Source: Planctomycetota bacterium (lineage in GTDB: Bacteria; Planctomycetota; UBA8742; UBA2392). Taken from it: DNA of 64,000 nt. The DNA is taken from contig JABTUE010000002.1 of assembly GCA_015075515.1 (NCBI GenBank), positions 533,478 through 597,477 of the forward strand, in the 5' to 3' direction. The notes below the pieces were generated by a model. It ran no database searches. It saw only the letters and a program-made list of their open reading frames with translations, and was not told the DNA's origin. A program made the translations under genes and the position numbers. Of this stretch, positions 11,314-56,559 are shown in pieces (within the stretch, counting starts at the first letter, position 1; every line of letters begins with the position of its first letter).

Positions 11314-11385
11314 GCGAACCTCCCTCCAGATTGTAAGGCCGGCATCGCCCGTTCACCCCTGCCGAAATTGCGGCAGTCGGCCGGA

Positions 11386-25476: not shown

Positions 25477-25487
25477 GGAGCAAGTAC

Positions 25488-26138
25488 ATGCGCAATGTAA
25501 TGGGATTTGTCACCGCCTGCGCCTTCATGTTGCTGGTGGGTGGCCTGATTCGAGGCGCGGCACTCAGCCGCGTTGACGCTCCGCTGGCCGAAAGCCAGCA
25601 GGATCAAAGCCAGCACCAGGGCCACGGCGCTGACACACCTGCGCAGCAACCCAAAGCAGAAGAGCCAACGAAGGCCGAGCCTGAGAGCAAAGAACCCGGG
25701 AAGGACAAGCCTGAGCCGGAGGCCGTCAAAGAACTTGAGAACGCCAACGATCCTGTGAGCAGCAAAGCGGCAGGCGACAAGCCCACAGTGCTGGAACACA
25801 AGGGCTGGAAAGTACGGTTTGAGAACGAGGCCAACCGCGACAAGTTCCTGAAGAAGCCGATCCGTTACTACGCTGCCCTGTCTCTTGAGCCCACCAGTGA
25901 CGGCAAGCTTCTGAAGGTGGACCCTTCCGGCTACGAAAAGGCTGCGCCCGCAACCTGCGGCATCATGGGCGGGGATATTGACCCTGACGGTGACGTGTTC
26001 GTCCTGCATCGAGGCTTCAAGGTCTACTTCTGCTGCTGGAGCGGCTGCGGCGACGAATTTGTGGCCAACGCTGCCAAGTACTACGACCATTACGGATTGG
26101 TCGAGAAGGACGGCAAGCTGGTGCGAAAGAAGGAGTAG
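25488..26138 (+). CDS. Periplasmic YHS/TRASH-domain metal-binding protein
   Basis: Signal-anchor, low-complexity Lys/Glu/Pro linker, two YHS-like modules (HKGWKVRFENEANRDKFLKKP; HRGFKVYFCCWSGCGDEFVANAAKYY). Confidence 0.5.
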   Translation: MRNVMGFVTACAFMLLVGGLIRGAALSRVDAPLAESQQDQSQHQGHGADTPAQQPKAEEPTKAEPESKEPGKDKPEPEAVKELENANDPVSSKAAGDKPTVLEHKGWKVRFENEANRDKFLKKPIRYYAALSLEPTSDGKLLKVDPSGYEKAAPATCGIMGGDIDPDGDVFVLHRGFKVYFCCWSGCGDEFVANAAKYYDHYGLVEKDGKLVRKKE

Positions 26139-26140
26139 CC

Positions 26141-27709: not shown

Positions 27710-27721
27710 TAGGGCGACGGC

Positions 27722-33347: not shown

Positions 33348-33806
33348 TTGAGGAGCCTTCCCATGGCCAAGCGCTACATCGTCCGCCTCACCGCTGAAGA
33401 ACGGGATCAGCTTACCGCCCTCGTCAAGACAGGCAAAGCGGCCGCCAAGAAGCGCCTGCATGCCCAGGTCCTGCTTCTGGCCGACGCTGACGGGCCGAGT
33501 CTGATCGACGCCCACATCGCCACCGCCTGCCGGATCCACGTCAAGACCATCGAGCGCATCCGCCGCCACTTCGTTCTCGACGGCCTCGAACGCGCGCTCA
33601 ATCGCAAGAAGCAGGAGCGTCCGTCCCGCCAGCCGAAGCTCGACGGCCGCGGCCAAGCACGGTTGACCGCCTTGGCCTGTTCCAAAGCGCCCGATGGCCG
33701 CGCGAACTGGACGTTGGAACTTCTTGCCGACGAGCTTGTGCGCCTGAACATTGTGGACTCCATCTGTGGCGAAACCGTGCGGCGCTATCTTCAAAAAACG
33801 AGTTGA
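33348..33806 (+). CDS. IS630-family transposase, N-terminal HTH part (OrfA)
   Basis: Helix-turn-helix-rich 152 aa; ends at A6 slippery run (33793-33798). Confidence 0.7.
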   Translation: MRSLPMAKRYIVRLTAEERDQLTALVKTGKAAAKKRLHAQVLLLADADGPSLIDAHIATACRIHVKTIERIRRHFVLDGLERALNRKKQERPSRQPKLDGRGQARLTALACSKAPDGRANWTLELLADELVRLNIVDSICGETVRRYLQKTS

Positions 33807-34495
33807 GGCCGCACCAAAGCGAGTACTGGTGCATCCCGCCCAAAGAGAATGCGGCTTTCGTGGCGCAGATGGAGGAGGTGCTTGATCTGTACCACGCGCC
33901 CTACGACCCGTCGTGTCCGCTGGTGTGCATGGATGAGTCGCCCAAGCAGCTTGTGGCGGAAACCCGCAGCCCCTTGCCGATGGAGCCGGGCAAGCCGCGT
34001 CGCTTTGACTATGAGTACGAGCGCAAGGGCATTGCCGAGATCTTCATGTTCACCGAGCCGTTGACCGGCCTGCGCTGGGTGAACGTGCGGGAGCGCCGCA
34101 CCAGGAAGGACTGGGCCGAGCAGGTGCGCTGGCTGCTGGAAGAAATCTTCCCCTGCGCGGCCAAGGTCACGCTGGTGTGCGACAATCTGAACACTCACAC
34201 CAAGGCCTCACTCTACGAGGCCTTCGATCCGAAGACGGCCAACAGGCTGGCGAAGAGACTGGATCTGCGGCATACGCCCAAACACAGAAGCTGGTTGAAC
34301 ATCGCCGAGATTGAACTCAAAGCCCTCTCAACGCAATGCCTGAACCGGCGCATCCCCGACTTGGCGACGCTGGCAAGCGAGACGCGGGCGTGGCAACATG
34401 GGCGCAACGCCGCGAGCCGGAAAGTTGACTGGCACTTCACCACCCAAGACGCACGCACCAAACTGAAAAGCCTTTACCCGACAACTCAATCGTGA
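33803..34495 (+). CDS. IS630-family transposase, DDE catalytic part (OrfB)
   Basis: VCMDESPKQL..., LVCDNLNTH, NIAEIELKALSTQCL motifs of IS630/Tc1 DDE domain; reached from OrfA by frameshift. Confidence 0.7.
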   Translation: MRPHQSEYWCIPPKENAAFVAQMEEVLDLYHAPYDPSCPLVCMDESPKQLVAETRSPLPMEPGKPRRFDYEYERKGIAEIFMFTEPLTGLRWVNVRERRTRKDWAEQVRWLLEEIFPCAAKVTLVCDNLNTHTKASLYEAFDPKTANRLAKRLDLRHTPKHRSWLNIAEIELKALSTQCLNRRIPDLATLASETRAWQHGRNAASRKVDWHFTTQDARTKLKSLYPTTQS

Positions 34496-36630: not shown

Positions 36631-37329
36631 TCAGCGTAGACTCTTGGCCAACAGGGCCAGTCTCTTGTTTGTTGCGGCGTCGGAGACCTGATCTCGAAGC
36701 CACCTAACCAACCTTCGAAAGTGCGTGGCTGGTAGCGCCCCTGGGTTGCGAGTGCCCGGCATTCGGCCGAACCAGCCAATCAAGTCAGCATCGGTGACGT
36801 GCGGTGGGTCCTCAACATCGACAAAGATCGGTTTACACGCATGAAACACGCCATGCTTGCGGGCACGGGCACGATACTTGAGGTTCCATTTCCCAAGATC
36901 GTTGTCTTTGCAATCGGTATGGTCGAGCGGGAACGGCATGCTGTCGCGTAGCATGCAGTTGCTGGGCGGCTCAACGCCCCGCTTGCGGTACCACCGGGCA
37001 GCCCGCTCGTGTGCGCGGAGACCGTTTTCGTCGACCTCAGGTCGCCATGACTTCAACACGCGGAGTACCGCAACAAGTCGCCTGCCGGACTCTTCGCCCC
37101 TGGGGTACACGATCTTCTTGGTCATGTAGGCGACCACGTCACCCTGCTTCAGCCGCGGTGCAAAGTTGCCGGCGCGGCATAGCGCTGTGATGGACGGGTA
37201 CTTGGACCTGAGGTCCGGCTCACGACGGCAAGACGCGTCAATGAATGGTGGCAGGCCAAAAAGCGCAACGGCACGCCGCCCGTGGGCGTTATGGATCAAG
37301 GGTCTGAAGGTGTTCAGGTACAGGGACAT
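36631..37329 (-). CDS. Hypothetical protein, last gene of the minus-strand defence-like operon
   Basis: 232-aa ORF 49 nt downstream of the DUF499-like gene on the same strand; no recognised motif. Confidence 0.4.
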   Translation of the reverse strand: MSLYLNTFRPLIHNAHGRRAVALFGLPPFIDASCRREPDLRSKYPSITALCRAGNFAPRLKQGDVVAYMTKKIVYPRGEESGRRLVAVLRVLKSWRPEVDENGLRAHERAARWYRKRGVEPPSNCMLRDSMPFPLDHTDCKDNDLGKWNLKYRARARKHGVFHACKPIFVDVEDPPHVTDADLIGWFGRMPGTRNPGALPATHFRRLVRWLRDQVSDAATNKRLALLAKSLR

Positions 37330-37378
37330 CTGTTCGACTTTCGCAGTGCGCCATGGAGGGTGCGCCCCAACCAGTTGG

Positions 37379-40303
37379 TCACAACCCGGCCTGGACGTCG
37401 TCGTTCAGTCCGAGCTCCCTGAGGTCCGCCTTCGTCTCGTCCATCTTCTGCGCTTGAACGCCGCCCTCGGGAGCTGCCTCGAAACTCACGCTTAGTTTCA
37501 AATTGCCGGCCGTGGCGTACTTGGCCAAGACCTTGGTGTAGAAGTTCATCCACTTCTGCGCCGGCACCTCGCCCGTCCAACGCAGCGTCTTCTGCTTTGG
37601 GGGCTCAGGTAAAGGCGGCGGTTGCGGCGTCTCCTTGCTGGAGATCCTCAATGTTGCTCTCGCCTGAATGTCATCCACGACCGCCTCAACAACGTACTCA
37701 CCTTCCTCGCCAGTGGCCTTGAATCCACCCTTGTCGTCAATGTCGCCGCCCGTGGCTGACCACTTCACGCCACTGACATTCATCGGTCGGCCATGCTGGT
37801 CCAGCCCGCCCACACGAAACACAACGCGCCCCTTGGGTTTCACGTTGGCAATCGAGGGACTGATCTCGATGCTTGTCAGCTTGGGCGGCTCCACGTGCTT
37901 CTTGGCTTCGTCGGCCGTGAGGATCACAACATCGTCTGAAATCTCAATGTCCTCGGCCGCGCAGTCCTGTTCGAAGATGAACGGCTCGTAACGTCCATCT
38001 GGGCGCTTGCCCGCGTATGCTAGGATCTTCTCGCTGACGCCTCTGGCGATGGTCTCCTTGATGACGTCCGCGTTGAGCAGGCGTGGGAACTCCGGGGAAG
38101 CGAAAAATGCATCCCGCACTGCACGTGTGCTCCACTCTGCAAATCCGGGCCATTTCCGGACGAGGAAGTTCGGCGTGATGGTCTTTTCGACGACGCCTTG
38201 CTCCCGAAGTCGCTTGAGTATGACCTCGACCATTGTTGAAGCCTGGCTGGAGTTGATCAGTCCCAAGTCGATCCTGGTCAACTCGTTGTCCTTGCCCAGC
38301 AACAGCAGGAACTTGTAGCTACGCCATACAGATTCCTTCACATCGCGCTTTGCCCGCACCACGTGTTCGGCAAGCTGGCGTTTCTGGCCATCGTCGATGT
38401 GGAGCTCATCCTTTTCGGCGTCAATCGCCTCCCACGCCAGCGCCTTGCGAACTTCTTCTCGCACGTGGTTGGCGGACTCGGCCACGCACCACACAATCGC
38501 GCTCTTGAAGGTCCGGCCTGACTTTCCGCACTCCCATGTCATGGGCTTCACCAAGGCCTTGGTCTTGGCTTCCTCCTCCATGGAATGCTCAGGCGCGAGC
38601 ACTGCCAGCGTCAAGATTGGTCGGTCTGCGACAGCGCTGCTCTTCTCTGGAAAGAACACGCGTTCGATGCCATTGTCTGGCGGAAATACCTTCTGGATTT
38701 CAGCCCGCGCTCGTTCGTCAATCGCCTTCTCCGTGATGCTGGCACGCCTGTCCGAAAAGCGCTTTATCAGATTCTCGGTAGTACTGAACTTGTACCGGTT
38801 GCGTTCAACGGACAGGTAGTAGCAGCCCTGGCTGAGCGTCTCCAGCACGGTTTCAATATGGCCGATGTCGAGGCCGGGCTCGCCCACACCCAGCCGAATC
38901 TCCGGCACAGTTGCCACCGCCTTGAGTTGGCCGCCGTTGGATTCAAAGAAAACTGTCGTGGCAACCTTCTTGTGCAGCCTGGCCTTGCGAATATCCGGCG
39001 TGGCTTCACGGTCCAGCCGGTCTGCGTGGGAGTCGTTCTTGCCGGAAATGTCGGTCGTAACCGCGCCCTCAAGCTTGTTCTCACCCAGCTGCTCAAAGGT
39101 CGCGGTGCGGAAGAATGGATCCTCAAGTGGCGCAGAACCAAGGCCGATCAACGCGTCCTTGTGTGCCCCGCGGTAGTCGTCGCTGTAGGCCTTGGACACC
39201 CACAATGCAAGCAAACGCAGAATGCCGCGGGTCTGCTGGAACCTCGGAAGCTGCTGCCACTTGCGCTCAAACACCGACAAGACCACGGGGTGAAACGGAT
39301 ATGTGGCGGCAAACGCCTCCCTGGCGTTATCCGCGGGAAACCAGCCCGGAATCTGTGTGCGGTGCTCCGACACCCACTCGGCGTATGCCGCAACGACCTT
39401 TTCGGCTTCCTTCGTCAAGCCTTCCCACTCGAAGAGGCGCCGACGAATGATCTCGGCGGTTTCGGTTTCGGCGGACAGCAGTACGGCCTTGGCGTACTTG
39501 TCCAGCTTCTTCTTGATGCGCTGGTAATCGTCCTGGTCCTCAGCCGTCATCTCCAGGTCGGACTTCGGTATCGACACCATTAAAACGATGCGATTGGACG
39601 TCGCCGCAACTTCGCACAGGTTCTCGATGAAGTTGTAAAGCTCGCCGCCAAGGCCGTTCTTCCGGTTTCGGCTGACATAGTTCATGACCTCGTCCATCAG
39701 GATGAGGCAGGGCTTCTTGTCGGGGATGAACGAACGGATCACTTCGCCGGATGGCGCCGTCTTCTGTTTCTCGTGCTCGGCGACCAGTTCAAAGCCTTCC
39801 TTGCCGCCGATCTGCCAGGCCAGTTCTCCCCACGGTGTCTTGCGCACTGGCGTGCCGTCTTTGCCGCCGCGCCCCGTTAGCGAATCGAACTCCGTTCCTA
39901 CAAAAATGCCCGTGGCAGCCTTGGGCACTTCCTTCGTTCCCGCGTGCTCAAGGATGGTGCTGACGCCCCGCCACGACTTTGCCTCTTTGCCGGCCGAAGC
40001 AAGGTGATACAGCAACGTCAACGCGTGGGTCTTGCCGCCGCCGAACTGGGTCACGAGGTTGAAGACGGGCGAGCTCTCAACCACGATTCCCGACAGCCGC
40101 CGCACAACCTGTGCCGCCGTGGTCAGCAGCCCCTTGGTCAGATATGTGCGGCCGAAGAAACGTGCCGGGTCCTGATAGTCCTGCCGTGCATTGCCGTCGC
40201 GCACCTGGTCGAGGTGCACGGCGAACTCTGATGCATCCAGCGGCTTGCCCTCGCGCAGGTCTTCGCGGGGGTAGATCACCTTGTACCAGGGTTGAAGGGC
40301 CAT
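37379..40303 (-). CDS. DUF499-like P-loop ATPase (974 aa)
   Basis: Walker A FGGGKTHALTLLYHL, Walker B CLILMDEVMNY, long helical C-terminal region; resembles the DUF499 family that co-occurs with DUF1156 methyltransferases. Confidence 0.7.
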   Translation of the reverse strand: MALQPWYKVIYPREDLREGKPLDASEFAVHLDQVRDGNARQDYQDPARFFGRTYLTKGLLTTAAQVVRRLSGIVVESSPVFNLVTQFGGGKTHALTLLYHLASAGKEAKSWRGVSTILEHAGTKEVPKAATGIFVGTEFDSLTGRGGKDGTPVRKTPWGELAWQIGGKEGFELVAEHEKQKTAPSGEVIRSFIPDKKPCLILMDEVMNYVSRNRKNGLGGELYNFIENLCEVAATSNRIVLMVSIPKSDLEMTAEDQDDYQRIKKKLDKYAKAVLLSAETETAEIIRRRLFEWEGLTKEAEKVVAAYAEWVSEHRTQIPGWFPADNAREAFAATYPFHPVVLSVFERKWQQLPRFQQTRGILRLLALWVSKAYSDDYRGAHKDALIGLGSAPLEDPFFRTATFEQLGENKLEGAVTTDISGKNDSHADRLDREATPDIRKARLHKKVATTVFFESNGGQLKAVATVPEIRLGVGEPGLDIGHIETVLETLSQGCYYLSVERNRYKFSTTENLIKRFSDRRASITEKAIDERARAEIQKVFPPDNGIERVFFPEKSSAVADRPILTLAVLAPEHSMEEEAKTKALVKPMTWECGKSGRTFKSAIVWCVAESANHVREEVRKALAWEAIDAEKDELHIDDGQKRQLAEHVVRAKRDVKESVWRSYKFLLLLGKDNELTRIDLGLINSSQASTMVEVILKRLREQGVVEKTITPNFLVRKWPGFAEWSTRAVRDAFFASPEFPRLLNADVIKETIARGVSEKILAYAGKRPDGRYEPFIFEQDCAAEDIEISDDVVILTADEAKKHVEPPKLTSIEISPSIANVKPKGRVVFRVGGLDQHGRPMNVSGVKWSATGGDIDDKGGFKATGEEGEYVVEAVVDDIQARATLRISSKETPQPPPLPEPPKQKTLRWTGEVPAQKWMNFYTKVLAKYATAGNLKLSVSFEAAPEGGVQAQKMDETKADLRELGLNDDVQAGL

Positions 40304-40312
40304 CTCGCGCTC

Positions 40313-40894
40313 CTACTTCATCAAACCAAACCTGCCGGTGCCGGCGTCCAGTTGCCACCACTGAAAGAACCCGTACGGAAAGTACTCCGCCTCGTTCGTC
40401 CTGCCCACCACCACAAGGGTCTCGCCTTCAAGGCCGACACGGCCGGCAAGGCCCATGGCCTGCACCACCTGCTCTTCCAATGCCCGCACCAGCTTCGGCG
40501 CGTCCTCCGGGTTTCGCCGGTAGCAAAACACAACCCGCAAACTGGCCCGAACAATCAGCACCTTCCACAGCGAGTACGCAATGCGGTCAACCGCCTGGCT
40601 GTTCTCAAGCTCTGCGACCGCTACCGGGAACCTCCATCGCTTCTCGCTATCCCCAAAGGCCATCATGTCCAGTGCCAGGTACTCGCTTTGGTTCACCGGC
40701 AGCAGCGTGGCCTTGTGCCCGATGGCTGATGCCTGCCAGCCCACTTCGCGGCAGGTTTCCACCGTGCAAGTCGTCAGCGCCCTTGTCCAGGCCGCGAGCT
40801 TGCCCTGCGTGGCCGCCTGCTTGAGCGGCCCGGCGTGCTCCTGCCTGCTGACCAACTGCAGGAAGACATCGCGCCAGTCCGCGGCCTCAACCAT
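40313..40894 (-). CDS. DUF3780-like small protein
   Basis: 193 aa, position between the methyltransferase and ATPase genes as in DUF1156/DUF499 cassettes; 1-nt stop/start overlap (TAATG) with the methyltransferase gene. Confidence 0.45.
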   Translation of the reverse strand: MVEAADWRDVFLQLVSRQEHAGPLKQAATQGKLAAWTRALTTCTVETCREVGWQASAIGHKATLLPVNQSEYLALDMMAFGDSEKRWRFPVAVAELENSQAVDRIAYSLWKVLIVRASLRVVFCYRRNPEDAPKLVRALEEQVVQAMGLAGRVGLEGETLVVVGRTNEAEYFPYGFFQWWQLDAGTGRFGLMK

Positions 40895-43818
40895 TAGAAG
40901 CCCAGTCCTTTCTTGCGGGCAAGCACGCCATCGACCCAGCGTTTTTCGTCCGTGCCCGTCGGGTACAGCGCCGACAACGCCTGTGCAAGCGTCCAGAACT
41001 TACCGTCGCGCCCGACGCCTTCGTCAACCAGAAAGCGTTTCATGGCTTCGCTGCGCCCGGCTGCGAACAGGATCATTGCCTGGTGCACACGGTCCAGTGT
41101 GGTCTCGCCTACCTTGGGGGCACCCTTCTTGCCCCAGCCGCCTTCAACTTCAGCCTGCTCCAGTTCTTCCTCGAAGGCCATTTGTTTCTGCTTGGACTTC
41201 TTACGCCGGCCAGCCGGCGCGTCGCTTTCATCCTTGCCGAAGAGAGCCTTGGTACGCTCAGAAACAGGCAACAGGCGTGCCGTGTCCTTTTCGATGGCGA
41301 CGACTGTCTGGAGATTCTCCAGGTGTGCGCCCAACCCCTGGGCTATCTTGCGCGCCGCGTCGTACTCAAGGCTGAAGCCGGCAGCCTTGCTCTTCTTTTT
41401 GTTCTTGTTGTTGTCGCTGTCGTCGGCGTCAGCGTCGCCACCGGCATCGTCTTCGCCGGAACTATCGGGTTTGCCGTTACCGGTACTCAGCGTCCAGAGC
41501 CACATGGCCGTGAGCCGGGCGTCTTCTTCGAGACTGGCTGCATCCACGCCCTGGAAGACCTGGTTTAGAGCTTCCTGGGACACGGCGGCCCAGACTTGCT
41601 CCAGATAAACCCGCAATGTCACTTCTTCGCCGCTGGCCTTCTCGACACGGGCGTAGCGCGAAAAGATCTCCAAGGCAGGGCCCAGGCAAGCGAAGATGGC
41701 ATCCGCGCCCACGATCCCTTCGGACCGGAGACGTGGCATCCACTCCGAAATGCGCCGAGGAAGTTCAGCGAGTACTTCACGCCAGTCGCCTACTTCGGCA
41801 TCGCGGAGTGAGCCGTCGGGGTTCTCGCGGGGCCTGCAAACCAAGTGGACCGAGCTGCTAAGTGCGGCTGAATCCTTCGCTCTCATCCGAGTGGTGTTCT
41901 CTGTGTGTATGGGCCAGGACGCCGTGACCATCCACCCGGCACTCACCAGTGCATTGAGAAGAGCTTCCCATCCGGCCGTGCCCTTGTGAGCGAAGATCAC
42001 GACACCCACTCCGTCAGGCTTTAGTGCTCGCCGGGCGTCCGCTAGTGCCGCTTGCATCGTTGCTTCGAAGTAACGTCTGTCCTTTGGGGGCCCTTCATCA
42101 GCCGGCGGCCCCGGGTCCATTATGCACTCCCCAGTTTTCGGGCTGAGTTGCGACGAGAACAAACCCGGATGAACATGAACCAAAGCACGCTTGAGCCACA
42201 CAAAGCAAAAATCTGACAGCGCCGCATATGGTATGGCGTCGTAGTACGGAGGGTCTGTCACAAGATATGTAAGAGAGTCATCGGGCAAGGGAGTTCTAGT
42301 TGCCGAGCATCGTGCGACCGTTCCCACTGATCGAATTGAATCCCCCTCCCGAGTCAGAAAGCTGACGATCAGACCATGCGCGTACTCGACACCGCCCACA
42401 AGCCTAGACATTAGTGGATTGGCCTCTGCAAAATCTGGCTTCATTGGTAGACCGCTTCCTTGGAACACGGTCCTGAAGTGATCGTGGCCAAAATAAGAAC
42501 ACGCGGAGAGCATTGGGGCGGTGTTACTGACGGCTAGGGCAATACACGATGCCACTGCGTCGGCGTAGTTGGCATCATCGCCTGCGCTGAGTATCTCCGC
42601 TCTGACATAATCAACGAGCCGGCACATAGTGCCCAACGCCAGTGCCTGCCGGGAAAGGTACACGTCGCTCCACCGTTCCATTCCGTATTTGTTTATTCGG
42701 TAGCCGAGAGTGCCGTCCGGCGGAGTTGGCTCATCCGGTATAAAGGAGTAATGGCCTTGGTTGTTGACTTCAATGCTGGAAAGTTCGCCCTCGGCACTTC
42801 GTGCTGCGTTGATGTCTTCCACAGTGGGCAACCGATAGTGTCGACCGCCGCCCTTGTCCAAGGTGATGACAGCAACCATGCGGGCATCTCGTGTGCCACC
42901 GTGCTTGGCTCGCAGCTGTTCTCGTGTCGCTTTGTACGGCGTCGTGTAGCCGCAGCACGGACAAGTGACTGCCATTCGATTGACAATGCCGGGCTGCACC
43001 TCTTTGTTAGACTTCGGCTCGAACACCTCAACATGCACTCTTTTGGCGGCTCGGTCGCCCCGATATCGCAGGGCCACACGAGACTTTGCTTTCTTGGACA
43101 GCCAAAGCATCCCCAGCAAGGGCACTTCTGCCCCGCAGGCAGGGCCTTCACATGTGATGGTGCGCGCCCAGATGTACGCCAAAGGGATGTTTCCCCTGCT
43201 GTCGGCCGGATAGAAGGCCGACAGTTTTTTTCGCGCTTGTTCCAGCACCCACTTGCCCCATTTCTCAACGCCCTCCGCAAGCCGATGCCCGAACTTGGGG
43301 AGGTACTCCTGCGATACCTTGTTCAGCAACACCGGAATGGGATTGAGGTCGCCGGCGAACGTGTTCGCCCCAACTCGCAGCGCCTCAAATGGAATCGAGC
43401 CCGCGCCGGCAAACGGGTCCATGATCAGCGGCGGACCCTCGGGATGTGCAGCCGAAACCAACCTGCGTGCGGCGGTCAGGTATGTGGGATTCACTCCCGC
43501 GTCCCAGGCCGCAAAGTCGGCCACAAACTGCAGCAGCGCTTGGCGCAAGGCCATTGGGTCCGACAGGTTGCGACCGGTAAACGGCTTGAGGGCTTCACGG
43601 GCGGCTGCACGAAATCCATCCGGGCAGTTCTCGTCAGCGGGATCCGGAACGATCGTTGCCAGAATGACCGCCCGGCAGGACGCCAAGGGCCGCGTTGCCC
43701 ACCAAACGTGCATGGTATGCAGGTGCCCCTTGCGCACATTCTGGTCCTTCCGCGCATGCTCCGAAATCTGACGAATCGGCAGGTCAACTTCGATGAGTTT
43801 CTTGGGTGCATTCTTCAT
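40894..43818 (-). CDS. DUF1156-like N6-adenine (DPPY-motif) DNA methyltransferase (974 aa)
   Basis: N-terminal KLIEVDLPIRQISEHARKDQNVRKGHLHTMHVWWATRPLASCRAVILA block characteristic of DUF1156; catalytic motif IV LVTDPPYYDAIPY; AdoMet-binding FAGAGSIP-like motif. Confidence 0.8.
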   Translation of the reverse strand: MKNAPKKLIEVDLPIRQISEHARKDQNVRKGHLHTMHVWWATRPLASCRAVILATIVPDPADENCPDGFRAAAREALKPFTGRNLSDPMALRQALLQFVADFAAWDAGVNPTYLTAARRLVSAAHPEGPPLIMDPFAGAGSIPFEALRVGANTFAGDLNPIPVLLNKVSQEYLPKFGHRLAEGVEKWGKWVLEQARKKLSAFYPADSRGNIPLAYIWARTITCEGPACGAEVPLLGMLWLSKKAKSRVALRYRGDRAAKRVHVEVFEPKSNKEVQPGIVNRMAVTCPCCGYTTPYKATREQLRAKHGGTRDARMVAVITLDKGGGRHYRLPTVEDINAARSAEGELSSIEVNNQGHYSFIPDEPTPPDGTLGYRINKYGMERWSDVYLSRQALALGTMCRLVDYVRAEILSAGDDANYADAVASCIALAVSNTAPMLSACSYFGHDHFRTVFQGSGLPMKPDFAEANPLMSRLVGGVEYAHGLIVSFLTREGDSIRSVGTVARCSATRTPLPDDSLTYLVTDPPYYDAIPYAALSDFCFVWLKRALVHVHPGLFSSQLSPKTGECIMDPGPPADEGPPKDRRYFEATMQAALADARRALKPDGVGVVIFAHKGTAGWEALLNALVSAGWMVTASWPIHTENTTRMRAKDSAALSSSVHLVCRPRENPDGSLRDAEVGDWREVLAELPRRISEWMPRLRSEGIVGADAIFACLGPALEIFSRYARVEKASGEEVTLRVYLEQVWAAVSQEALNQVFQGVDAASLEEDARLTAMWLWTLSTGNGKPDSSGEDDAGGDADADDSDNNKNKKKSKAAGFSLEYDAARKIAQGLGAHLENLQTVVAIEKDTARLLPVSERTKALFGKDESDAPAGRRKKSKQKQMAFEEELEQAEVEGGWGKKGAPKVGETTLDRVHQAMILFAAGRSEAMKRFLVDEGVGRDGKFWTLAQALSALYPTGTDEKRWVDGVLARKKGLGF

Positions 43819-45277
43819 GGGGACGATGCCTTGATCTTCTCAACCAGCGCCTTGCGTTCTGCTTTTGGTACGCCTTCCAGGTACGCCCGGGCCGCAACCG
43901 CAATCAGTTCGCCACGATTGAGCCGAGTTTGTGTCTCAAGGACGTCAAACCATTGGTGGTGGTCTCTGTCCCTGTTTGCGATGTCCGCGGCACCCCAATC
44001 AACATTCAAGCTTTCGCTGAAGCGCTGACGGAAGGTAGGCGACTTGAAAATCTCCTTTTCAGGCGGTTCCGTGCCAAACAACTTGAAAAGTTGAAGCCGT
44101 ACATTCTCGCCACAGTCTCCATCCCGCACGGCGCATATCGGGATGCGCTGATCTTTGAACACGTCCATCATCTGCGCGATACGGTCCTTATCTCCGGCCG
44201 CAAACACGCGTGCTGTCTTCAGGAAGTCCGCGTCATGCATGCGCAGAAGCTCGGTAACAACGGCCCCCGCAATTTCGTCCTCCACGAGAATGTAGATCGA
44301 CGGAATGGCCAAGCTGTCCATCATGCTGACGGCCTGGCGGACACCGATTCGCGGAATCGGAACGACACCCGTCCCCTCCCGCTTCAGGAAGACGCGAGAT
44401 TCTTCCGGCAGTGCCAAGAGTACATACTCGCTGTGTGTGGTCATGAGAATCTGGAGCTTTCGGCGCTTTGCAACCTCTACCAGGTACTTTCCGAGCTCAA
44501 ACTGGGCGCTCGGGTGTAGCGCTGTTTCCGGTTCCTCTAGCAGAATCAGGCTTTTCACTGGCGTGGCTTCCAAGGCTGTGACAACCAGGTACAGGCGGGC
44601 TTCGCCGGACCCCATGTTGGCCTCGGTGTATTCCGCGCCGACCTCGCGCTTGACGGTGAGCATATCAAAGGCCCGCCGGGCGTACCTCTTCTTCATGACA
44701 TTCACGTGGGCGGCGTCGTACTTGCACAACAGGATCTGCGAGACGCGTTCAATCACCTCGGCTTGGATCTGCTTTCTCTCACGCGCAGAGAGTTCGGCAT
44801 CTTCAAGTTGCTTCTTGACTCCGCGCTCCGCTCCGAGTGCGGCACGTAGAACCCTGTACCGATGTAACGGACGTGGCGATCTGGCTGGCGGTCGTAGCCT
44901 GCCCATGAATCGCCTGAACGTGACACCGTATTGGTAGTTACCCTTGCCGCGCCATCCTTGCCCGGCTGAGCTGCGTAGAAAAACTCTACCGACGCATCAT
45001 CCCGAAACGGTTTCTGCGGCAATCCGCCTACGAGGATGAATGTAGATACGTAGTAGCGCTCTTTACACTTGTATGCGGACGCTGCAAGCTGCAAGACCGT
45101 TGACTTGCCTGTGCCATTCACGCCGCAAAGCGCCAAGATCGGGCTCTCGATGGAGATCGTTGTGTCGGTGTGGTTGCGGAACCCCTGTATCCGCATGCGC
45201 ATCAACACTTCGCCGTAGCGCTCAAAGCGCGTTGACGCTGCAAAGTCCGCCTGAAGCTCTTTACGCGGATCAGCCAT
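43815..45277 (-). pseudogene. OLD/PARIS-like ABC-type ATPase plus TOPRIM(DUF4435-like) nuclease gene, disrupted by a frameshift near 44840-44865
   Basis: Upstream frame (45277-44753): Walker A GVNGTGKST. Downstream frame (to 43815): Walker B/D-loop LILLEEPETALHP, MTTHS, then TOPRIM-like ILVEDEIAGAVV...AAGDKDRI...AVRDGD. The two frames overlap by ~150 nt with no intervening in-frame stop. Confidence 0.55.
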
Positions 45278-48200
45278 TCACGGCCCCCTTGATGGCCTGT
45301 GCTGAAACAGCGTAATGCTCCACGGTCACGATGGGCTTCCATCCCAAGCGTGCCGGGTTGCGCACCACGTGAACTTGGGGTGTCGAGCCGCAGTTGAAAA
45401 CCACGTACAGCCAGAAGTCGTCCTTCAGCCGTTCGGCGGTCTTGTATTCGTTGGTGGTCAGCGCCACCTCGCCCACGCCCGAGCGTCCCTTCACCTCAAT
45501 GAAGCGCACGTCTATAGCTGTGGCCGGGTCCTCCGGGTGCGGCAGCCTTGATATCAGATCAAAGCCACGGTTCTCGTTCTCGACGCTCTCGACCGTGCGG
45601 CCCTGGGCTTCCTCGTAGGCGATCACGGCTTGCACGGCAATGCGCTCAATCTCGTCGTCCCGGACCATCGGGGCCACGCCGGGCGAGGTGCGCTCCGGGT
45701 GCGGCAGAACCCAGGCGCAGCCAACGTGCTGGATTTCGCCGATAGTGCACTGGCACTCGCGGTCAAGCTCGGCGATGCGCTGCTCGCGCCGGCCATTCAG
45801 TTCTTCCAGCCTGTCTTCGGCCTGCTTCATGCTTGCAATCAGCCACGGCGGCGTGGTGCCGAGCTTGCTGGCCTGGTCATGCAGCCCGGCATAGGTCATC
45901 TGCTGGCGGTGGATCAGCTCGTTCAGGCTGATCTCAATGTGCCGGCGGATGGTGTTGGTTTCCTTCAGGCGCTGCTTGGCGACCTCGGCCAGGAAGCCTG
46001 TCAGGCACTTGTCCATCAGGGCGTGCTCTCTGGCCTCGCGGGACGCCAGACCATCAGGCCCCGGCGCGGCGGTGCCCTTTGGCGCGGCCGTCAGGTCAAG
46101 GAAGATGGTGGGCTGCCGCACGGAAAGCTCGCCGCCCGGCGTGGCCTGCACCACAAACAGGCGACGGTGCAGCACGTTGCCAAGGCCGTCCTTCACAGAC
46201 GCCGAAAACACGTCCAGGTGGTAGGGCACGGGACTGTGCAGGTCATGAAACACCGCGCCGCGTCCCAAGCCCTCGCGCACTTGTTCCCACAGAGTCTGGC
46301 GCACGGTTTCAAACAAGGGGTGGCCGGGTGTGACCCATTCGCACGTGGGATCTTTGCTAAGCAGGGTTTTGTCAAAGACGATCTGCTTGTACTCGCGGCC
46401 CAGTTTGCCAAATCGGGACTCAAGCTTGTCGCCCATGGGCCACAAGTGCCGGGGCACGCGGCCGACACGATAGTTGTGGCTTGCGGCCGGCGTTTCTTTG
46501 GGCACGACACCCACAACTGGGCCCGCCTGGACGAAGAAATCCTCGATGACCTCGGGAACGAGGCGGCGCTCGCGGGCCTCGGCCGATTTGCCTACGATGG
46601 CGGAAAGGTTGAGCTCTTTCTTGGCCAGGCCTTCGAGGGTTGATTCAGTGATCTCGCGGAAGCGTTTGGGGTCAACGTCCTGCACGATGCGGGCCTTGAT
46701 GCTCTCTTCTGTCTGGTTGTGCAGGTACATGTCGCGGATCAACTTCTCGAGCTGGTTCGACGGAAACAAGTCGCCCAGCACGTTGAACACCTTCCCGGTG
46801 CGCAGAGGGTCCAGGTCGGCTTCGATCTGCTCCAGACGTTCAAACAGCTTGTCCAGCACGCGGCCTTCACGTGTGTTGGTGGCCACGAAGTTGAAGATGA
46901 GGCAGTCTTTCTCCTGGCCGTAGCGGTGGATACGGCCCATGCGCTGCTCAAGCCTCACGGGGTTCCACGGGATGTCGTAGTTGATCATGAACCAGCAGAA
47001 CTGCAGGTTGATACCTTCGCCCGCGGCCTCGGTGGCTACAAGTACCTGGGCGGAATCACGAAACTCTCGTTCGGCGTAGATGCGGGTGCCGGGCGTGTCG
47101 CGGTCGCCGATCTTCATGCCGCCGTGGATCTGGGTGACCGACAGCCCCCAGCCGTTCATCTTGCCGACGAGGTAATCCAGCGTGTCCTTGTGCTCGGTGA
47201 ACAGCAGCAGCTTCATCGCCGGGTCTTTGAAGATGCCCTTCTCGATGAGCAACTCGCGCAGGCGTGTCAGCTTGGTTTCAATCTCGCGCTGCTCCAGCAG
47301 CTTGGCCTGGTCGATCAACTTGTTCAGCTCGATGATCTCTTCGCGCAGGGCAGCCGGGTCAACGGACGCGACCACATCTTCAAGCTCGGCCAGAATCTCC
47401 TGCTGCTCGTCGTCCGGCAGTTCATCGAAGTCCTCCGGCAGCTTCTTGTTGATCTGCCGCTTACGGTAACCTTCGGGGTCCTTGAGAATGTCCTCGCGCT
47501 TGTCGCGCATACGCTCCAGGCTGCGGCGTGCCGCATAAACACTGGACGCTAGCCGGCGCTGCAACATGGCCATCGTGAAGCCAACAGCGCGGCCGGTCGT
47601 GGCATTGGCTGCCTGGGCCTTAATGGACTGATCTTCAACGTAGCGCGTGAGCGTGTCGTAGAGGTCCCACTCGTCGCTGTCGATCTCGAACTTGGCCGTC
47701 TGGACGTTGCGCTTGGTGAACAGTTTTTTGATCTGGCCGGTGTCCGGGTCCGGGAACGTAACCAGGGCTTCTTTGGTCCGGCGCAGATAGAACGGCGCGG
47801 AGTTGCGCTGCATGGCTTCTTCAAGGCTCTTGACGTCGCCGTACACGTCGGAATCCAGCAGCCGCAAGAACAGGCAGAAGTGGTCCGGGTCGCCCTTGTG
47901 CGGCGTGGCTGTCATGAGCAGGTAGTGGTCGGTCATCGCCGACAAGTGCTCGCCAAGCTGGTAGGCCAGCGTCTTCTTGTCAGCACTGTAGGCCGACATT
48001 TTGTGGGCCTCATCGACAATGATCAGGTCCCAATGGCTGCGCAGCAGGCTTGCGCGGGCATCGTCAATGCGCGACACCCAGGACACTGACGTGATGACCT
48101 GGTTCTTGTCTTGCCACGGGTTGGTGCCGTAGTTCGCGCGCAGCACGTCACCCTTGACGATTTCAAAGGTCTCGCGGAACTTGTCTTTCAGTTCGCGCTG

Positions 48201-48731
48201 CCACTGAAAGGTGAGGTTCGCCGGCGTGACGATCAACGTGCGCTTTGCAAGGCCGCGAACCTTGAGCTCCTTCAGCAGCAAACCGGCCATGATGGTCTTG
48301 CCGGCGCCCGGGTCGTCGGCAAGCAGAAAGCGGATGCGCGGCAGCTTGATGAAGTAGTCGTAAACGGCCTCAAGCTGGTGTGGCAGCGGGTCCACGCGGG
48401 CGATGGAAAGCGAGAAGTAAGGGTCGTACTCGTACGCTAGGCCAAGCCGCAGCGATTCCACGCCAAGGCGGAACTGCACCGGGTCGCCATCGAACGGCGG
48501 TTGATCGGGGCTGACATTGAGTGAGGCTAGCTGGGTGGGGTCGAGGACAGGCTCATAGACCTTGCCCGAGTCCAACCCCTTGCCAACAAGCTTGACCGAG
48601 GGCCCGACGGGCATGCACACGATTACCTGCACGGGCTCTGGGAACAGAGAGCCGCGCACGATTGCTCCGGGTTTCGGCGCACTTCCGGTCATCCGCCCGC
48701 ACCAGTTGGTTCGAATCACCCATTCAGCCAT
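45270..48731 (-). CDS. SNF2-family helicase with C-terminal DUF3883-like (restriction-endonuclease-fold) domain
   Basis: Motif I LADDPGAGKTIMAG, motif II LIIVDEAHKM, helicase-C motifs VLVATEAAGEGINLQ and QRMGRIHRYGQ; C-terminal ~120 aa (IDVRFIEVKGRSG...WLYVVFN) resemble DUF3883. Confidence 0.8.
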   Translation of the reverse strand: MAEWVIRTNWCGRMTGSAPKPGAIVRGSLFPEPVQVIVCMPVGPSVKLVGKGLDSGKVYEPVLDPTQLASLNVSPDQPPFDGDPVQFRLGVESLRLGLAYEYDPYFSLSIARVDPLPHQLEAVYDYFIKLPRIRFLLADDPGAGKTIMAGLLLKELKVRGLAKRTLIVTPANLTFQWQRELKDKFRETFEIVKGDVLRANYGTNPWQDKNQVITSVSWVSRIDDARASLLRSHWDLIIVDEAHKMSAYSADKKTLAYQLGEHLSAMTDHYLLMTATPHKGDPDHFCLFLRLLDSDVYGDVKSLEEAMQRNSAPFYLRRTKEALVTFPDPDTGQIKKLFTKRNVQTAKFEIDSDEWDLYDTLTRYVEDQSIKAQAANATTGRAVGFTMAMLQRRLASSVYAARRSLERMRDKREDILKDPEGYRKRQINKKLPEDFDELPDDEQQEILAELEDVVASVDPAALREEIIELNKLIDQAKLLEQREIETKLTRLRELLIEKGIFKDPAMKLLLFTEHKDTLDYLVGKMNGWGLSVTQIHGGMKIGDRDTPGTRIYAEREFRDSAQVLVATEAAGEGINLQFCWFMINYDIPWNPVRLEQRMGRIHRYGQEKDCLIFNFVATNTREGRVLDKLFERLEQIEADLDPLRTGKVFNVLGDLFPSNQLEKLIRDMYLHNQTEESIKARIVQDVDPKRFREITESTLEGLAKKELNLSAIVGKSAEARERRLVPEVIEDFFVQAGPVVGVVPKETPAASHNYRVGRVPRHLWPMGDKLESRFGKLGREYKQIVFDKTLLSKDPTCEWVTPGHPLFETVRQTLWEQVREGLGRGAVFHDLHSPVPYHLDVFSASVKDGLGNVLHRRLFVVQATPGGELSVRQPTIFLDLTAAPKGTAAPGPDGLASREAREHALMDKCLTGFLAEVAKQRLKETNTIRRHIEISLNELIHRQQMTYAGLHDQASKLGTTPPWLIASMKQAEDRLEELNGRREQRIAELDRECQCTIGEIQHVGCAWVLPHPERTSPGVAPMVRDDEIERIAVQAVIAYEEAQGRTVESVENENRGFDLISRLPHPEDPATAIDVRFIEVKGRSGVGEVALTTNEYKTAERLKDDFWLYVVFNCGSTPQVHVVRNPARLGWKPIVTVEHYAVSAQAIKGAVNG

Positions 48732-48905
48732 CCACCGACTGCATCACAACGCCCGAGTTGGAACGAGGTTACGCCCGGTGTTTACAAGCCGGAAACACCA
48801 TACTCGGTGCTGCGACACTTTCCAAGGATGGACGGGAATCGGATCTCGCGTCGCATTCAGATGTAGGCTGTCCGGCGTAGCGGCCACCCATGCCCAGCAG
48901 GCGAC

Positions 48906-48933
48906 TATTGCAAATGCAATAGCTCCTGCAATA
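48906..48933. promoter_or_regulatory. Operator-like palindrome TATTGCA-AA-TGCAATA plus third TGCAATA half-site, immediately upstream of XRE regulator gene
   Basis: Perfect inverted repeat at 48906-48921 and repeat half-site 48927-48933, 10 nt before the ATG at 48944, in the divergent intergenic region shared with the helicase operon. Confidence 0.45.
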
Positions 48934-48943: not shown

Positions 48944-49294
48944 ATGTGGACAGGCGCCAACATTCAGAAGCTACGACACCGCTTAGGCTGGACCATGGAG
49001 CAGATGGCCCAGGCGATGGGCGTCAACTACACGACCATTTGGCGCTGGGAGAGCGCCGTGCTGCCTCAGCTTCCCGACTGGCAGGGCGTGATTCTGAACA
49101 GGCTGGCGGCCTACGCCGACGAATGGGAGGCGAAGCAACGCGCTCAGCAGCAGGCTCAAGCTGCAAAGCAGGGCGCGGGTGATGCCCTGGGGACGATACT
49201 GGTTGCCGGCGGGCTCATCGCGTTGGCGGCAGCGCTGTTCGCCGGCGCCGCCGGTTCGTCCAAGCCGACCAAGAAACGGACGCGACGGAAATAG
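48944..49294 (+). CDS. XRE-family helix-turn-helix transcriptional regulator with C-terminal transmembrane anchor
   Basis: HTH LGWTMEQMAQAMGVNYTTIWRWE; C-terminal hydrophobic LGTILVAGGLIALAAALFAGAAG followed by KKRTRRK. Confidence 0.6.
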   Translation: MWTGANIQKLRHRLGWTMEQMAQAMGVNYTTIWRWESAVLPQLPDWQGVILNRLAAYADEWEAKQRAQQQAQAAKQGAGDALGTILVAGGLIALAAALFAGAAGSSKPTKKRTRRK

Positions 49295-49690: not shown

Positions 49691-49775
49691 TGGAGCGGGC
49701 GAAGGGGTTCGAACCCTCGACCACCTGCTTGGGAAGCGACAAGTACACACCTTCCCCCAACTAGACCGACTTGGC
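49691..49775 (-). other. tRNA-like 3' fragment (T-arm, acceptor 3' strand, CCA) without a matching 5' acceptor strand; candidate att-site remnant
   Basis: Minus-strand reads ...GGTCGAGGGTTCGAACCCCTTCGCCCGCTCCA, a canonical T-stem/loop/acceptor/CCA. No complementary GCGGGCG 5' strand could be found by eye. Confidence 0.4.
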
Positions 49776-49863
49776 CCAATGAGCCTCACACTGGCTTCAC
49801 GGGCTGAGTTGCGGGCGATTGACGATCCCGGATCAAAACCTTGCATGTCCCTGCTTGTCCCGG

Positions 49864-49896
49864 ATATCGTGTACATATCGTGTACATATCGTGTAC
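49864..49896. repeat. Three perfect tandem copies of 11-bp ATATCGTGTAC
   Basis: Read directly at 49864-49896, ~45 bp upstream of the integrase start codon; candidate integrase arm-type binding sites. Confidence 0.7.
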
Positions 49897-49941
49897 AACG
49901 GGGACGCCTGTCGCGTAAGCAGGCGGTCATGGGTTCAGGTC

Positions 49942-51207
49942 ATGGCGAGGTCGAGAAAACCAGCGCGGGTCGTGAAGTGGCGCGGTGTGTGGTACCTGTT
50001 CTACACGGACCACAGCACCAACCGGCAGATGCGCCTGGCATGCACCTCGTTGGGCGCGACCAACGCGGACGAACGCCGCGAGCTCCTCAACGAGTATCGC
50101 TCCAAGGAAGTCAACGATCTTGCCGAAGTCAACAAGCGCGGGGGCGGCTTGGCATACGATCGCCCGTTGATCACGGAGCTTGACAGCTACGTGGAGGCGT
50201 CGCTCAAGCGGGTATCTATTCGTGCCGCCAATCCAGAAGCGCGTAGCGGACTGAGCGCCAAGACCGGCAAGGTGATCGAGAATGTTGTGGACCACTTCAA
50301 GAAGTGGCTTATCCGAACCGGCCGAGAGCGATTGACCACGGGAAGGCTTGATGGCCCAACGCTGCGCGAGTATCGCGACGACTTGGCGGCAGAACCCGCG
50401 CGGCTTGGTCGCAAAGCCGTCAAGAGGTCCGCGCCGACCATCAACCAGTATCTGCGAACGATCAAGACCTGCCTGGTCTTCCTGCACTCAAAGCGCCCTC
50501 CTCGATTCCCAGACTTCGAGAACTTGAGGATTGCGCTGAAGCCACTGCGGGAGGATCGGAAATCCCCCGTGGCATACACGCCGGCGGAGCTTCGGGCCTT
50601 TCTGGCGGAGGCGGAGGCCCGCGAACAACCCCACAAAGTAGTGGAGGTTCAACGAACCAAGCACGACAAGCCAGAGAAGTTCCTCATGGAGACGGTCAAG
50701 ACTGCTTCCACGCCTGTTTCGCGCCTCTTTCTGGTCTTGGCGCTGATCGGATGCCGCCTGGGCGAAGCCCTGGCCCTGAGGTGGCAGGACGTTGATCTCA
50801 ATCGTGGCAGGATCACCATCCGTGCGCCCAAAACCGGACGCACGCGCTGGATTCCATTGGTGGGCGCCCCCGAGGGCGCCATTGCGCCCTCTTTGCTGGA
50901 CAGGTTGCGGCGCTGGCGTGAAGAAGACCCCAAACGCGAGTATGTCCTGCCCCACACTGGCCTAGACGCGCCCGTCTTTCCCAAGGGGGCATGGAAGGGC
51001 ACCAACCGCAACGCGGGCATCAGGGCGATCTCCCCGCAGCACCTGCGGCAGAACTTCACCAGCTACGCGGGCTCACTTGGCATCCCTGCCACGGTGGCGG
51101 CCATGTGGCAAGGGCACGGTGCAGACGTGGCTGAGAAGCACTACCGCGCCCAAGTACTCGACCGCAACGAAGGAGCTTCCTTCGACGTCGCGATGGGATT
51201 AGCCTGA
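49942..51207 (+). CDS. Tyrosine-type site-specific integrase
   Basis: C-terminal catalytic region ALIGCRLGEALALRWQDVDL (Arg I), HLRQNFTSYAG (His-x-x-Arg), HYRA (Tyr nucleophile); start at ATG 49942 rather than upstream 49819. Confidence 0.8.
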   Translation: MARSRKPARVVKWRGVWYLFYTDHSTNRQMRLACTSLGATNADERRELLNEYRSKEVNDLAEVNKRGGGLAYDRPLITELDSYVEASLKRVSIRAANPEARSGLSAKTGKVIENVVDHFKKWLIRTGRERLTTGRLDGPTLREYRDDLAAEPARLGRKAVKRSAPTINQYLRTIKTCLVFLHSKRPPRFPDFENLRIALKPLREDRKSPVAYTPAELRAFLAEAEAREQPHKVVEVQRTKHDKPEKFLMETVKTASTPVSRLFLVLALIGCRLGEALALRWQDVDLNRGRITIRAPKTGRTRWIPLVGAPEGAIAPSLLDRLRRWREEDPKREYVLPHTGLDAPVFPKGAWKGTNRNAGIRAISPQHLRQNFTSYAGSLGIPATVAAMWQGHGADVAEKHYRAQVLDRNEGASFDVAMGLA

Positions 51208-52562: not shown

Positions 52563-52772
52563 ATGACGCTTGTCCAGGCAGCGGCCGCGCTTGGTCAACA
52601 CGTCAGCGTCAAGGTGCTCCGGGCAGAAGTGAAAGCAGGGCGCCTGCGCTGCTACCGAGTACGCCCCGGAGCAAACTCGAAAATTCTGCTCAGTGAGTGT
52701 GACCTCGCGGACTGGCTTCAGAACGTCGCTGGCAGTCGCCAGAGGGCGTTTCGCCAACGCGGCGCGCACTAG
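52563..52772 (+). CDS. Excisionase/AlpA-like helix-turn-helix DNA-binding protein
   Basis: 69 aa, LMTLVQAAAALGQHVSVKVLRAEVKAGRLRCYRV resembles the Xis/AlpA HTH_17 fold; position between integrase and primase genes. Confidence 0.45.
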   Translation: MTLVQAAAALGQHVSVKVLRAEVKAGRLRCYRVRPGANSKILLSECDLADWLQNVAGSRQRAFRQRGAH

Positions 52773-52791
52773 AAATCAGGAGAAGTCAACC

Positions 52792-54837: not shown

Positions 54838-54965
54838 GCGCACGTTCCCGGTGACCGGAGGCCTTCCGGCTTCCGGTCACCGGGGCGGGAAAGCCCTCAG
54901 AAATGCAGTGAGTGCAGTGGTCTCAGTTGTTTTTGCACTGCGGCCCCGGCGATCAAGGAGAAGCC

Positions 54966-56552: not shown

Positions 56553-56559
56553 GAGAGAC

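Follow-up and report, generated by a model that had tools for sequence, protein, structure and literature searches.

Hma was named by Payne et al. in 2021 as a candidate defence system, recorded at 1,638 occurrences in 26 phyla (PMC8565338), and its helicase has since been given an activity: HmaA of Halomonas alone protects E. coli from phage T4, and this protection requires a C-terminal PD-(D/E)xK domain, which nicks supercoiled plasmid DNA with Mn2+ (Liu et al. 2024, PMC11232893). A co-directional string of genes on the minus strand of a 64,000-nt stretch of Planctomycetota DNA (hereafter the window, meaning the whole stretch analysed) very probably represents a further copy, that is, an Hma system carrying a gene of the HEC-04 type embedded between hmaA and hmaB. 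The window belongs to a metagenome-assembled genome (MAG; proteins MBE7491675-78, locus tags HS108_07985 onward), and the string had originally been predicted, from the letters alone, to be an uncharacterised antiphage operon of six genes.

The place of Hma among related defences was revised in 2026, when Hma loci were reclassified as Type-1 DUF499-centred BREX-related (BR) systems, homologous to Type-3 BREX, with an N-terminal TUDOR domain and an inactive internal restriction endonuclease (REase) as synapomorphies of the helicase (Nucleic Acids Research 2026, PMC12839542). The model proposed in the same survey is restriction-modification-like: the methyltransferase marks self, the ATPase scaffolds and senses, and the helicase-nuclease restricts. 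Embedded genes are common in these loci, being carried by 62.7% of 1,485 Hma systems, and are referred to as Hma-embedded candidates (HEC). One of them, HEC-04, which combines an ABC ATPase with an OLD-type TOPRIM in one protein, defends E. coli alone, its activity being abolished by the Walker-A substitution K62A or by E319A/D375A/D377A in the TOPRIM (Payne 2024, bioRxiv 10.1101/2024.01.29.577857).

Identity of the core genes

The string extends over positions 36631-48731 of the window, where the listing of open reading frames (ORFs) and the profile searches give the following features.

45270-48731, minus strand: hmaA, 1153 aa (PADLOC HmaA, Pfam, motifs)
44753-45277, minus strand: N-terminal fragment of the HEC-04-like gene, 174 aa (PADLOC HEC-04, Pfam AAA_23/AAA_15)
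43815-44906, minus strand: C-terminal frame of the HEC-04-like gene, a 363-aa ORF whose homologous part runs from about 44825 down
44817-44829, minus strand: frameshift site of the HEC-04-like gene, 1 base short relative to intact homologues
40894-43818, minus strand: hmaB, 974 aa, DUF1156 amino-methyltransferase (PADLOC HmaB)
40313-40894, minus strand: gene of a 193-aa protein with a predicted restriction-endonuclease-like fold, from an Hma-linked family without a name
37379-40303, minus strand: hmaC, 974 aa, DUF499 STAND/ORC-like AAA+ ATPase (PADLOC HmaC)
36631-37329, minus strand: gene of a 232-aa protein with a predicted PUA-like (ASCH/EVE/YTH) fold, on the same strand as hmaC

Assignment to Hma is made because full-length PADLOC matches, agreeing Pfam domains, intact catalytic motifs and a recurring gene order coincide. 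The three core genes span 11.4 kb of the minus strand and enclose two embedded genes, the first separating hmaA from hmaB and the second hmaB from hmaC. For the helicase, the top-ranked PADLOC model is HmaA (2.2e-194, residues 22-1126 of 1153); Pfam recovers SNF2-rel_dom, Helicase_C and NOV_C (the former DUF3883; 3.3e-20), the motifs GAGKT142, DEAH240 and D1058..E1080-V-K1082 of the PD-(D/E)xK domain are intact, and the protein is 70-85% identical to the helicases of Hma loci L002, L004, L013 and L015 (comparison loci are cited by such numbers throughout). The methyltransferase likewise has HmaB as its top-ranked model (5e-101), with Pfam DUF1156 at 7.8e-18, the SAM-binding motif I FAGAG136 and motif IV DPPY522, while the ATPase is matched best by HmaC over residues 1-804 (6.7e-125) and by Pfam DUF499 (7e-22), with Walker A GGGKT88 and Walker B LILMDE200 in place. 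The domain families predicted originally were thus mostly recovered by Pfam profile search (SNF2, NOV_C/DUF3883, DUF1156, DUF499 and AAA_15/AAA_21, along with Helicase_C and AAA_23); DUF3780 and, on the OLD-like ORFs, DUF4435 were not.

The junctions between the genes agree with the translational coupling described earlier: hmaA and the HEC-04-like gene overlap by 8 nt (ATGGCTGA), the latter and hmaB by a 4-nt ATGA, and hmaB and the 193-aa gene by TAATG, while gaps of 9 nt and 49 nt precede hmaC and separate hmaC from the 232-aa ORF, respectively. What was read as a six-gene operon therefore stands as a co-directional string, but its OLD-like gene is not one ORF: it consists of two overlapping ones.

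The closest relatives in the genome contigs searched are only 60-77% identical. The order hmaA, intact HEC-04-like gene of about 490 aa, hmaB, (small gene), hmaC was found in Sulfurifustis variabilis AP014936.1 (L015), in Thalassoglobus polymorphus CP036267.1 (L027) and in metagenome contigs L024-26, and in L024-27 the 8-nt and 4-nt overlaps flanking HEC-04 are identical to those of the window. The embedded OLD-like gene, for which a survey of homologous loci had been advised, is thus a catalogued and recurrent feature, because HEC-04 is a named family and the same order recurs in L015 and L024-27. HEC-04 is absent from many other Hma loci, among them L001, L003 and L013. In L004, a Phycisphaerae MAG, the hmaB homologue at 4602-5567 covers no more of the window protein than residues 3-262 and 899-974, which suggests a large internal deletion in that methyltransferase.

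Other named methylase-helicase systems are DISARM, BREX, MADS and the Type-2 BR systems, of which the last are defined by DUF3780 and also have an HKD helicase (PMC12839542). The operon proteins do give partial matches to DrmD, BrxHI/II, BrxC, mad2/mad3 and DUF1156_antiphage/DUF499_antiphage, but the probability that the cassette is one of these other methylase-helicase systems is close to negligible. We regard this alternative as already refuted because the NCBIfam scores fall below the cut-offs (DrmD 355 against 610 bits, DUF1156_antiphage 154 against 1000, DUF499_antiphage 142 against 1200, BrxC 16.6 against 400), all of them far below the Hma scores. No PglZ was matched on any operon protein, PglX being reached at 4e-6 only, and neither DrmA (the DUF1998 helicase), DrmB and DrmC nor a DrmD of equivalog score is found in the operon. 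DUF3780 and an HKD/PLD domain are likewise absent from its proteins; on the helicase, Pfam gives no PLD/HKD match, and PADLOC PLD_Helicase and NCBIfam phospholipD_antiphage hit the helicase core only (156 bits against 1100).

The identification changes the status of the cassette. Its placement in a BREX/DISARM-like epigenetic class of defence was borne out through the Hma/Type-1 BR identity, but its description as uncharacterised can no longer be kept. Hma was named in 2021 (PMC8565338), HmaA was shown to defend against T4 and to act as a nickase (PMC11232893), a phenotype was demonstrated for HEC-04 as well (bioRxiv 10.1101/2024.01.29.577857), and the group has been reclassified (PMC12839542), so that the locus matches systems already named and characterised (Hma, HEC-04), an outcome that the original prediction had itself named as refuting its novelty.

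The embedded HEC-04-like gene

In place of the one uninterrupted polypeptide of about 490 aa expected of HEC-04, the window has two overlapping ORFs in different frames (44753-45277 and 43815-44906), with a start-to-stop span of 1463 nt, which equals 2 modulo 3. The 174-aa fragment matches PADLOC HEC-04 at 7e-12 over profile positions 18-145 of 494, as well as Pfam AAA_23 and AAA_15; it carries the Walker A motif GVNGTGKS (K58), can be aligned with the first 150 residues of intact 489-aa homologues and is out of frame past about residue 151. The 363-aa ORF continues the same profile (6.4e-32, positions 139-403 of 494), matches ATPase-Toprim_I-B at 2.3e-15 and Pfam AAA_21 and AAA_15, and contains the ABC signature, Walker B and an OLD-type TOPRIM. 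The TOPRIM is assigned because of the two PADLOC models, because PF20469 is matched in homologues of the protein, and because E331/D332 and D384xD386 (numbering of the joined protein) are invariant in the alignment and kept in the window.

Most likely this HEC-04 copy was split by a 1-nt deletion near 44820 and is a recent pseudogene. The roughly 100 full-length homologues listed for the joined conceptual protein (best 66% identity) are all single chains of 487-495 aa. In their alignment the change of frame falls in a poorly conserved stretch, between ..PHSERSA and VKKQLED.., and the best-scoring single-base repairs, judged with a hidden Markov model (HMM) built from intact homologues only, lie at 44817-44829. 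The lesion is taken to be recent because the Walker A, Walker B and TOPRIM residues (K58, E331/D332, D384xD386) are all retained. A programmed -1 frameshift was considered and rejected, as the site lacks a slippery heptamer and the reading frame is continuous in every homologue.

Retention of every catalytic residue and of both translational-coupling overlaps would also be expected if the missing base were a sequencing or assembly artefact and the organism had an intact gene of about 488 aa, hence a functional pair of Hma and HEC-04. The window does come from a MAG, on a 987-kb contig, the affected region is G/C-rich (GAGCGCGGAG), and one base repairs the frame. Such an error is nonetheless unlikely, since a separately assembled contig of the European Nucleotide Archive (ENA; L012, ERZ3604704, 1886 nt) carries the identical site, reproducing the window sequence without gaps and with 1 single-nucleotide polymorphism (SNP), and is also called as two genes; the site, moreover, is not a long homopolymer.

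A different way to retain function would be synthesis as two chains, a 174-aa Walker-A half and a 313-aa Walker-B/TOPRIM half started at a GTG, which would reassemble into a working nuclease. ABC/SMC-type heads can reconstitute from separate N and C halves. The break falls where the alignment is least conserved (columns ~160-185), and the GTG, at 44756, is the start used by the gene caller in L012. We nevertheless hold this to be quite improbable: the listed full-length homologues are all single-chain, some 25 residues are missing or changed, GAGG directly abuts the GTG and leaves no usable spacing, and the SNP in L012 alters a conserved Asp (KYDAAH to KYAAAH), hinting at relaxed constraint.

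Two points do count against a recent pseudogene. The ENA assembly, at 2.7x coverage, may go back to the sample behind the window or to a related one, and its confirmation of the frameshift is therefore not fully independent; and the GTG shares bases with the stop codon that closes the N-terminal ORF (GTGA, 44756-44753), which makes a two-chain product possible. Overall, the idea of the OLD-like gene as a separate embedded effector held up, in keeping with the "guilt by embedding" of Payne 2024 and the "backup effectors" of the 2026 survey, whereas a working nuclease arm did not, since the gene is frameshifted here. In its normal form HEC-04 would be an autonomous ABC-ATPase-TOPRIM nuclease of the OLD family that senses infection and acts independently of Hma.

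A predicted nuclease-fold protein between hmaB and hmaC

The 193-aa protein encoded between hmaB and hmaC had been called DUF3780-like, an assignment that is wrong by sequence: no Pfam family, DUF3780 included, matches it or any of 31 aligned homologues at E<=10. The call would also have pointed to the wrong subtype, Type-2 BR. Nor was a match obtained in NCBIfam, PADLOC or PHROG, or among PDB sequences by profile search. Loci L006-L011 have a different, 737-aa methyltransferase family and offered no usable DUF3780 neighbours.

Its predicted structure is that of a BamHI/NucC-like restriction endonuclease, with the alpha-beta-beta-beta-alpha-beta core of the PD-(D/E)xK fold, an acidic residue on the second strand and (D/E)x(K/E) on the third. 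The family comprises 911 homologues of about 194 aa at ~55-89% identity, from several phyla and in 304 clusters at 50% identity, and its invariant residues are D76, E95-L-E97 and K111. In the model, D76, E95/E97 and K111 are located at the ends of the second and third core strands and on the following helix, and the D76/E95-L-E97 layout is what we take to be the BamHI-type D..ExE arrangement.

Linkage of the family to Hma is strict in the sample: in all eight contexts (the window, L004, L013/14, L015, L027, L028, L029/30) the gene is flanked by hmaB (DUF1156) and hmaC (DUF499). Further genes are inserted before it in L013 (339 aa) and L027 (289 aa) and after it in L029 (560 aa). Because other genes insert on either side of it, the 193-aa gene behaves like a scaffold part of an Hma subclade. 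It is not universal in Hma, its slot being occupied by MNT/HEPN genes in L001, by other genes in L003 and L005 and by an unrelated multi-transmembrane (multi-TM) protein in L024.

The slot between hmaB and hmaC appears in these loci as a second embedding hotspot. The MNT/HEPN (DUF86-like) pair is that of Dethiobacter (L001, 7051-7687), the multi-TM protein has 196 aa and occurs in L024-26 (L024, 8645-9235), and the 560-aa insert of L029 is a SLFN_AlbA_2/HATPase_c_4 protein (9744-11426). The 196-aa gene was tried as a homologue of the 193-aa family and rejected (hhalign probability 0.3%, multi-TM protein), and an apparent second decayed ATPase in L030 as compared with L029 proved to be merely a difference in gene calling, the DNA being identical.

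Most likely, judging from its predicted fold and its neighbours, the 193-aa protein is an extra nuclease subunit of an Hma subclade. Standalone PD-(D/E)xK REases are common auxiliary effectors in the survey of BR systems (PMC12839542), so the category is known, although no name or model for this family was found. A bolder proposal, which we put forward only tentatively and do not favour, is that these proteins form a true fourth core component in a large subclade of Hma/Type-1 BR systems, the gene not being an interchangeable embedded one. If that were true, the 193-aa protein could make the double-strand cut, HmaA having been shown only to nick, or could alternatively couple the methyltransferase to the ATPase, and a definition of Hma by three genes, as published, would fall short for that subclade.

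The 232-aa protein

The last gene of the string encodes a 232-aa protein whose predicted structure contains a PUA-like beta-barrel of the ASCH/EVE/YTH fold and whose family has an invariant CRREPD motif. It has no match in Pfam, and none in the viral structure library at E<=0.001. Homologues stand immediately upstream of DarT/Macro genes (DarTG) in L016/17; in L018-22 they either close a run of tiny genes, with SAD_SRA-HNH coming next, or have RadC and small methyltransferases nearby; and in L023 a ParB-methyltransferase is the neighbour. Its candidacy as an Hma component was rejected, its HMM matching no other Hma locus; the original inclusion of the gene among the conserved parts of the system finds no counterpart in the L016-L023 contexts, where the family stands apart from Hma. 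The protein is probably separate cargo of a mobile element or defence island, unrelated to Hma. What speaks against such independence is its position 49 nt downstream of hmaC with no convincing terminator between, so that co-transcription is possible.

These contexts also bear on the more ambitious view of the operon as a novel integrated system of six genes, in which the OLD-like nuclease and the 193-aa and 232-aa proteins would be obligate parts of one modification-dependent machine. The tight packing of co-directional, overlapping genes agrees with such a machine, as does the strict linkage of the 193-aa family to Hma among the contexts sampled. It is highly improbable all the same: HEC-04 works alone in E. 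coli, is missing from many Hma loci (L001, L003, L013) and is interrupted in the window; outside the window the 232-aa family was not encountered together with Hma; and the hmaB/hmaC slot is held by unrelated genes in other loci (the MNT/HEPN pair of L001, the multi-TM protein of L024).

Genomic surroundings

The earlier suggestion of a horizontally acquired island between an insertion sequence (IS) element and an integrase is reasonable in view of the transposase, the integrase and the drop in GC content. GC falls from ~0.64-0.69 to 0.58-0.61 at about 34 kb, where an IS630-like two-ORF DDE_3 transposase (33348-34495, DDE_3 at 33803-34495) forms the left flank; a tyrosine integrase at 49819-51207 forms the right one. 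No tRNA or tmRNA gene was detected beside the integrase by ARAGORN or Rfam. A tRNA-like T-arm/acceptor fragment (..GGTTCGAACCCC..CTCCA) is present on the minus strand at 49691-49730, ~90 nt from the integrase gene, and may be an attachment-site (att) remnant; no convincing att direct repeats bound the island, and no repeat matching the fragment occurs in the window.

Between hmaA and the integrase two further features were recorded.

48944-49294, plus strand: small XRE-type helix-turn-helix (HTH) gene, divergent from hmaA (Pfam HTH_31, PHROG)
48905-48933, no strand assigned: palindrome and third half-site in the hmaA/HTH intergenic region, read from the sequence

The HTH gene matches Pfam HTH_31 at 1.3e-5 and PHROG transcriptional regulator/repressor families at ~5e-5, and from its position it could possibly regulate the hmaA operon. 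The perfect 18-nt palindrome CTATTGCAAATGCAATAG at 48905-48922, together with a third TGCAATA half-site at 48927-48933, is a possible candidate operator. A promoter scan of this intergenic region gave no sigma-70-like site, and the sigma-70 promoter and terminator scans returned counts at chance level. L024-L027 carry a co-directional HTH_17 gene just upstream of hmaA, unlike the divergent XRE-type HTH of the window.

On the higher-GC side to the left of the island lies a Cus/Czc-type heavy-metal RND efflux operon (24103-31198) composed of an outer-membrane factor, an HlyD-type adaptor with a heavy-metal-binding domain and an AcrB-family pump. It is followed by a 581-aa protein with an N-terminal GHKL domain (HATPase_c/HATPase_c_3) and no PADLOC match at 31348-33093, next to the IS630-like transposase. 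On the other side of the cassette, large ORFs at 52693-57546 have no family match apart from one weak PHROG of unknown function, and a 493-aa PDDEXK_4 protein beyond them (60172-61653) matches the PADLOC candidate PDC-S26 (1e-22). The same low-GC region may hold further defence cargo.

Discussion

The string is a real defence operon and an ordinary member of named, partly validated families (Hma/Type-1 BR and HEC-04), not a new system. Names, PADLOC models and partial experimental validation exist for the cassette as well as for its embedded gene, and finished genomes contain the same architecture. The window contributes a copy from Planctomycetota to a system with a proposed three-component mechanism of methylation, sensing and restriction.

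Following the literature, the DPPY DUF1156 amino-methyltransferase HmaB would mark host DNA; HmaC, an ORC/STAND-like AAA+ protein with DNA-binding modules, would assemble on or scan DNA and recognise unmarked or invading molecules; and HmaA, a Snf2 translocase with a PD-(D/E)xK nickase, would damage the DNA that HmaC recognises. Within this scheme only the activity of HmaA has been demonstrated, for the Halomonas homologue acting alone against T4 (PMC11232893), and no demonstration of a joint mechanism of HmaA, HmaB and HmaC was found in the literature searched. Two points argue against a restriction-modification-like core: T4 propagated in a host overexpressing HmaB was restricted as before (PMC11232893), and neither methylation of DNA by HmaB nor a need for HmaC has been demonstrated by experiment, so that such a core stays an inference.

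What remains of interest is the decayed embedded effector and, as the one open lead, the unnamed 193-aa nuclease-fold family. The former offers a natural example in which an embedded, potentially toxic OLD-type effector decays while the Hma genes stay intact, and it bears on the stability of embedded defences. The latter is a conserved, strictly Hma-linked protein with a predicted nuclease fold that lies outside present definitions and HMM libraries.

Comparison with known systems

Type-3 BREX and class 1 DISARM (BrxHII/DrmD helicases, PglXI, BrxC) have distantly homologous Snf2 helicases, N6-methyltransferases and STAND ATPases and a "methylate self, attack non-self" logic in common with the operon of the window, which is however without PglZ, BrxA/B/F and DrmA/B/C. 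In Type-2 BR systems (HKD-helicase, DUF1156 methyltransferase, DUF3780, DUF499) the methyltransferase and the ATPase are homologous to those of the window, and the locus likewise contains a small additional gene; but their helicase has HKD, whereas that of the window has PD-(D/E)xK, and the small protein of the window has a predicted REase-like fold and no DUF3780 match.

The accessory proteins can be compared in the same way. The 193-aa protein resembles the restriction endonucleases BamHI, OkrAI and BstYI and the CBASS effector NucC in predicted fold, but has no detectable sequence similarity to them, is shorter and has three N-terminal helices. The 232-aa protein differs from the PUA-like readers of modified bases (ASCH/EVE/YTH) in having an extra helical region at its C-terminus and a conserved CRREPD motif of its own. 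The embedded gene shares with OLD, Gabija GajA and PARIS AriA-AriB an OLD-family ABC ATPase coupled to a TOPRIM nuclease and the proposed role of an infection-sensing backup effector; HEC-04, however, is a single fused gene without the GajB helicase or a separate AriB, and the PADLOC model HEC-04 is matched more strongly than those of GajA, AriA and Old. HEC-04 itself (Payne 2024) is the best PADLOC match of both fragments and agrees with the window copy in its ABC ATPase and OLD-type TOPRIM, its position between hmaA and hmaB, the lysine of Walker A and the E and DxD residues of the TOPRIM. The tested protein is a single chain, in contrast to the 174-aa and 363-aa ORFs found here, and its catalytic residues K62/E319/D375/D377 are numbered K58/E331/D384/D386 in the window.

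The experimentally studied HmaA of Halomonas meridiana (PMC11232893) has the same Pfam architecture (SNF2-rel_dom, Helicase_C, NOV_C) and D..ExK nuclease motif as its counterpart here, the antiphage phenotype being known for that homologue only; its locus embeds Septu (PtuAB) where the window has HEC-04, and between hmaB and hmaC it contains an AAA_21 pair. With Hma/Type-1 BR as a whole the window shares the Snf2 helicase with its C-terminal PD-(D/E)xK domain, the DUF1156 amino-methyltransferase, the DUF499 ATPase, their co-directional arrangement and the embedding of genes between them. Nothing essential differs; the window adds the gene of the 193-aa protein with its predicted REase fold, which lies outside the published three-gene definition but recurs in a subclade of these systems.

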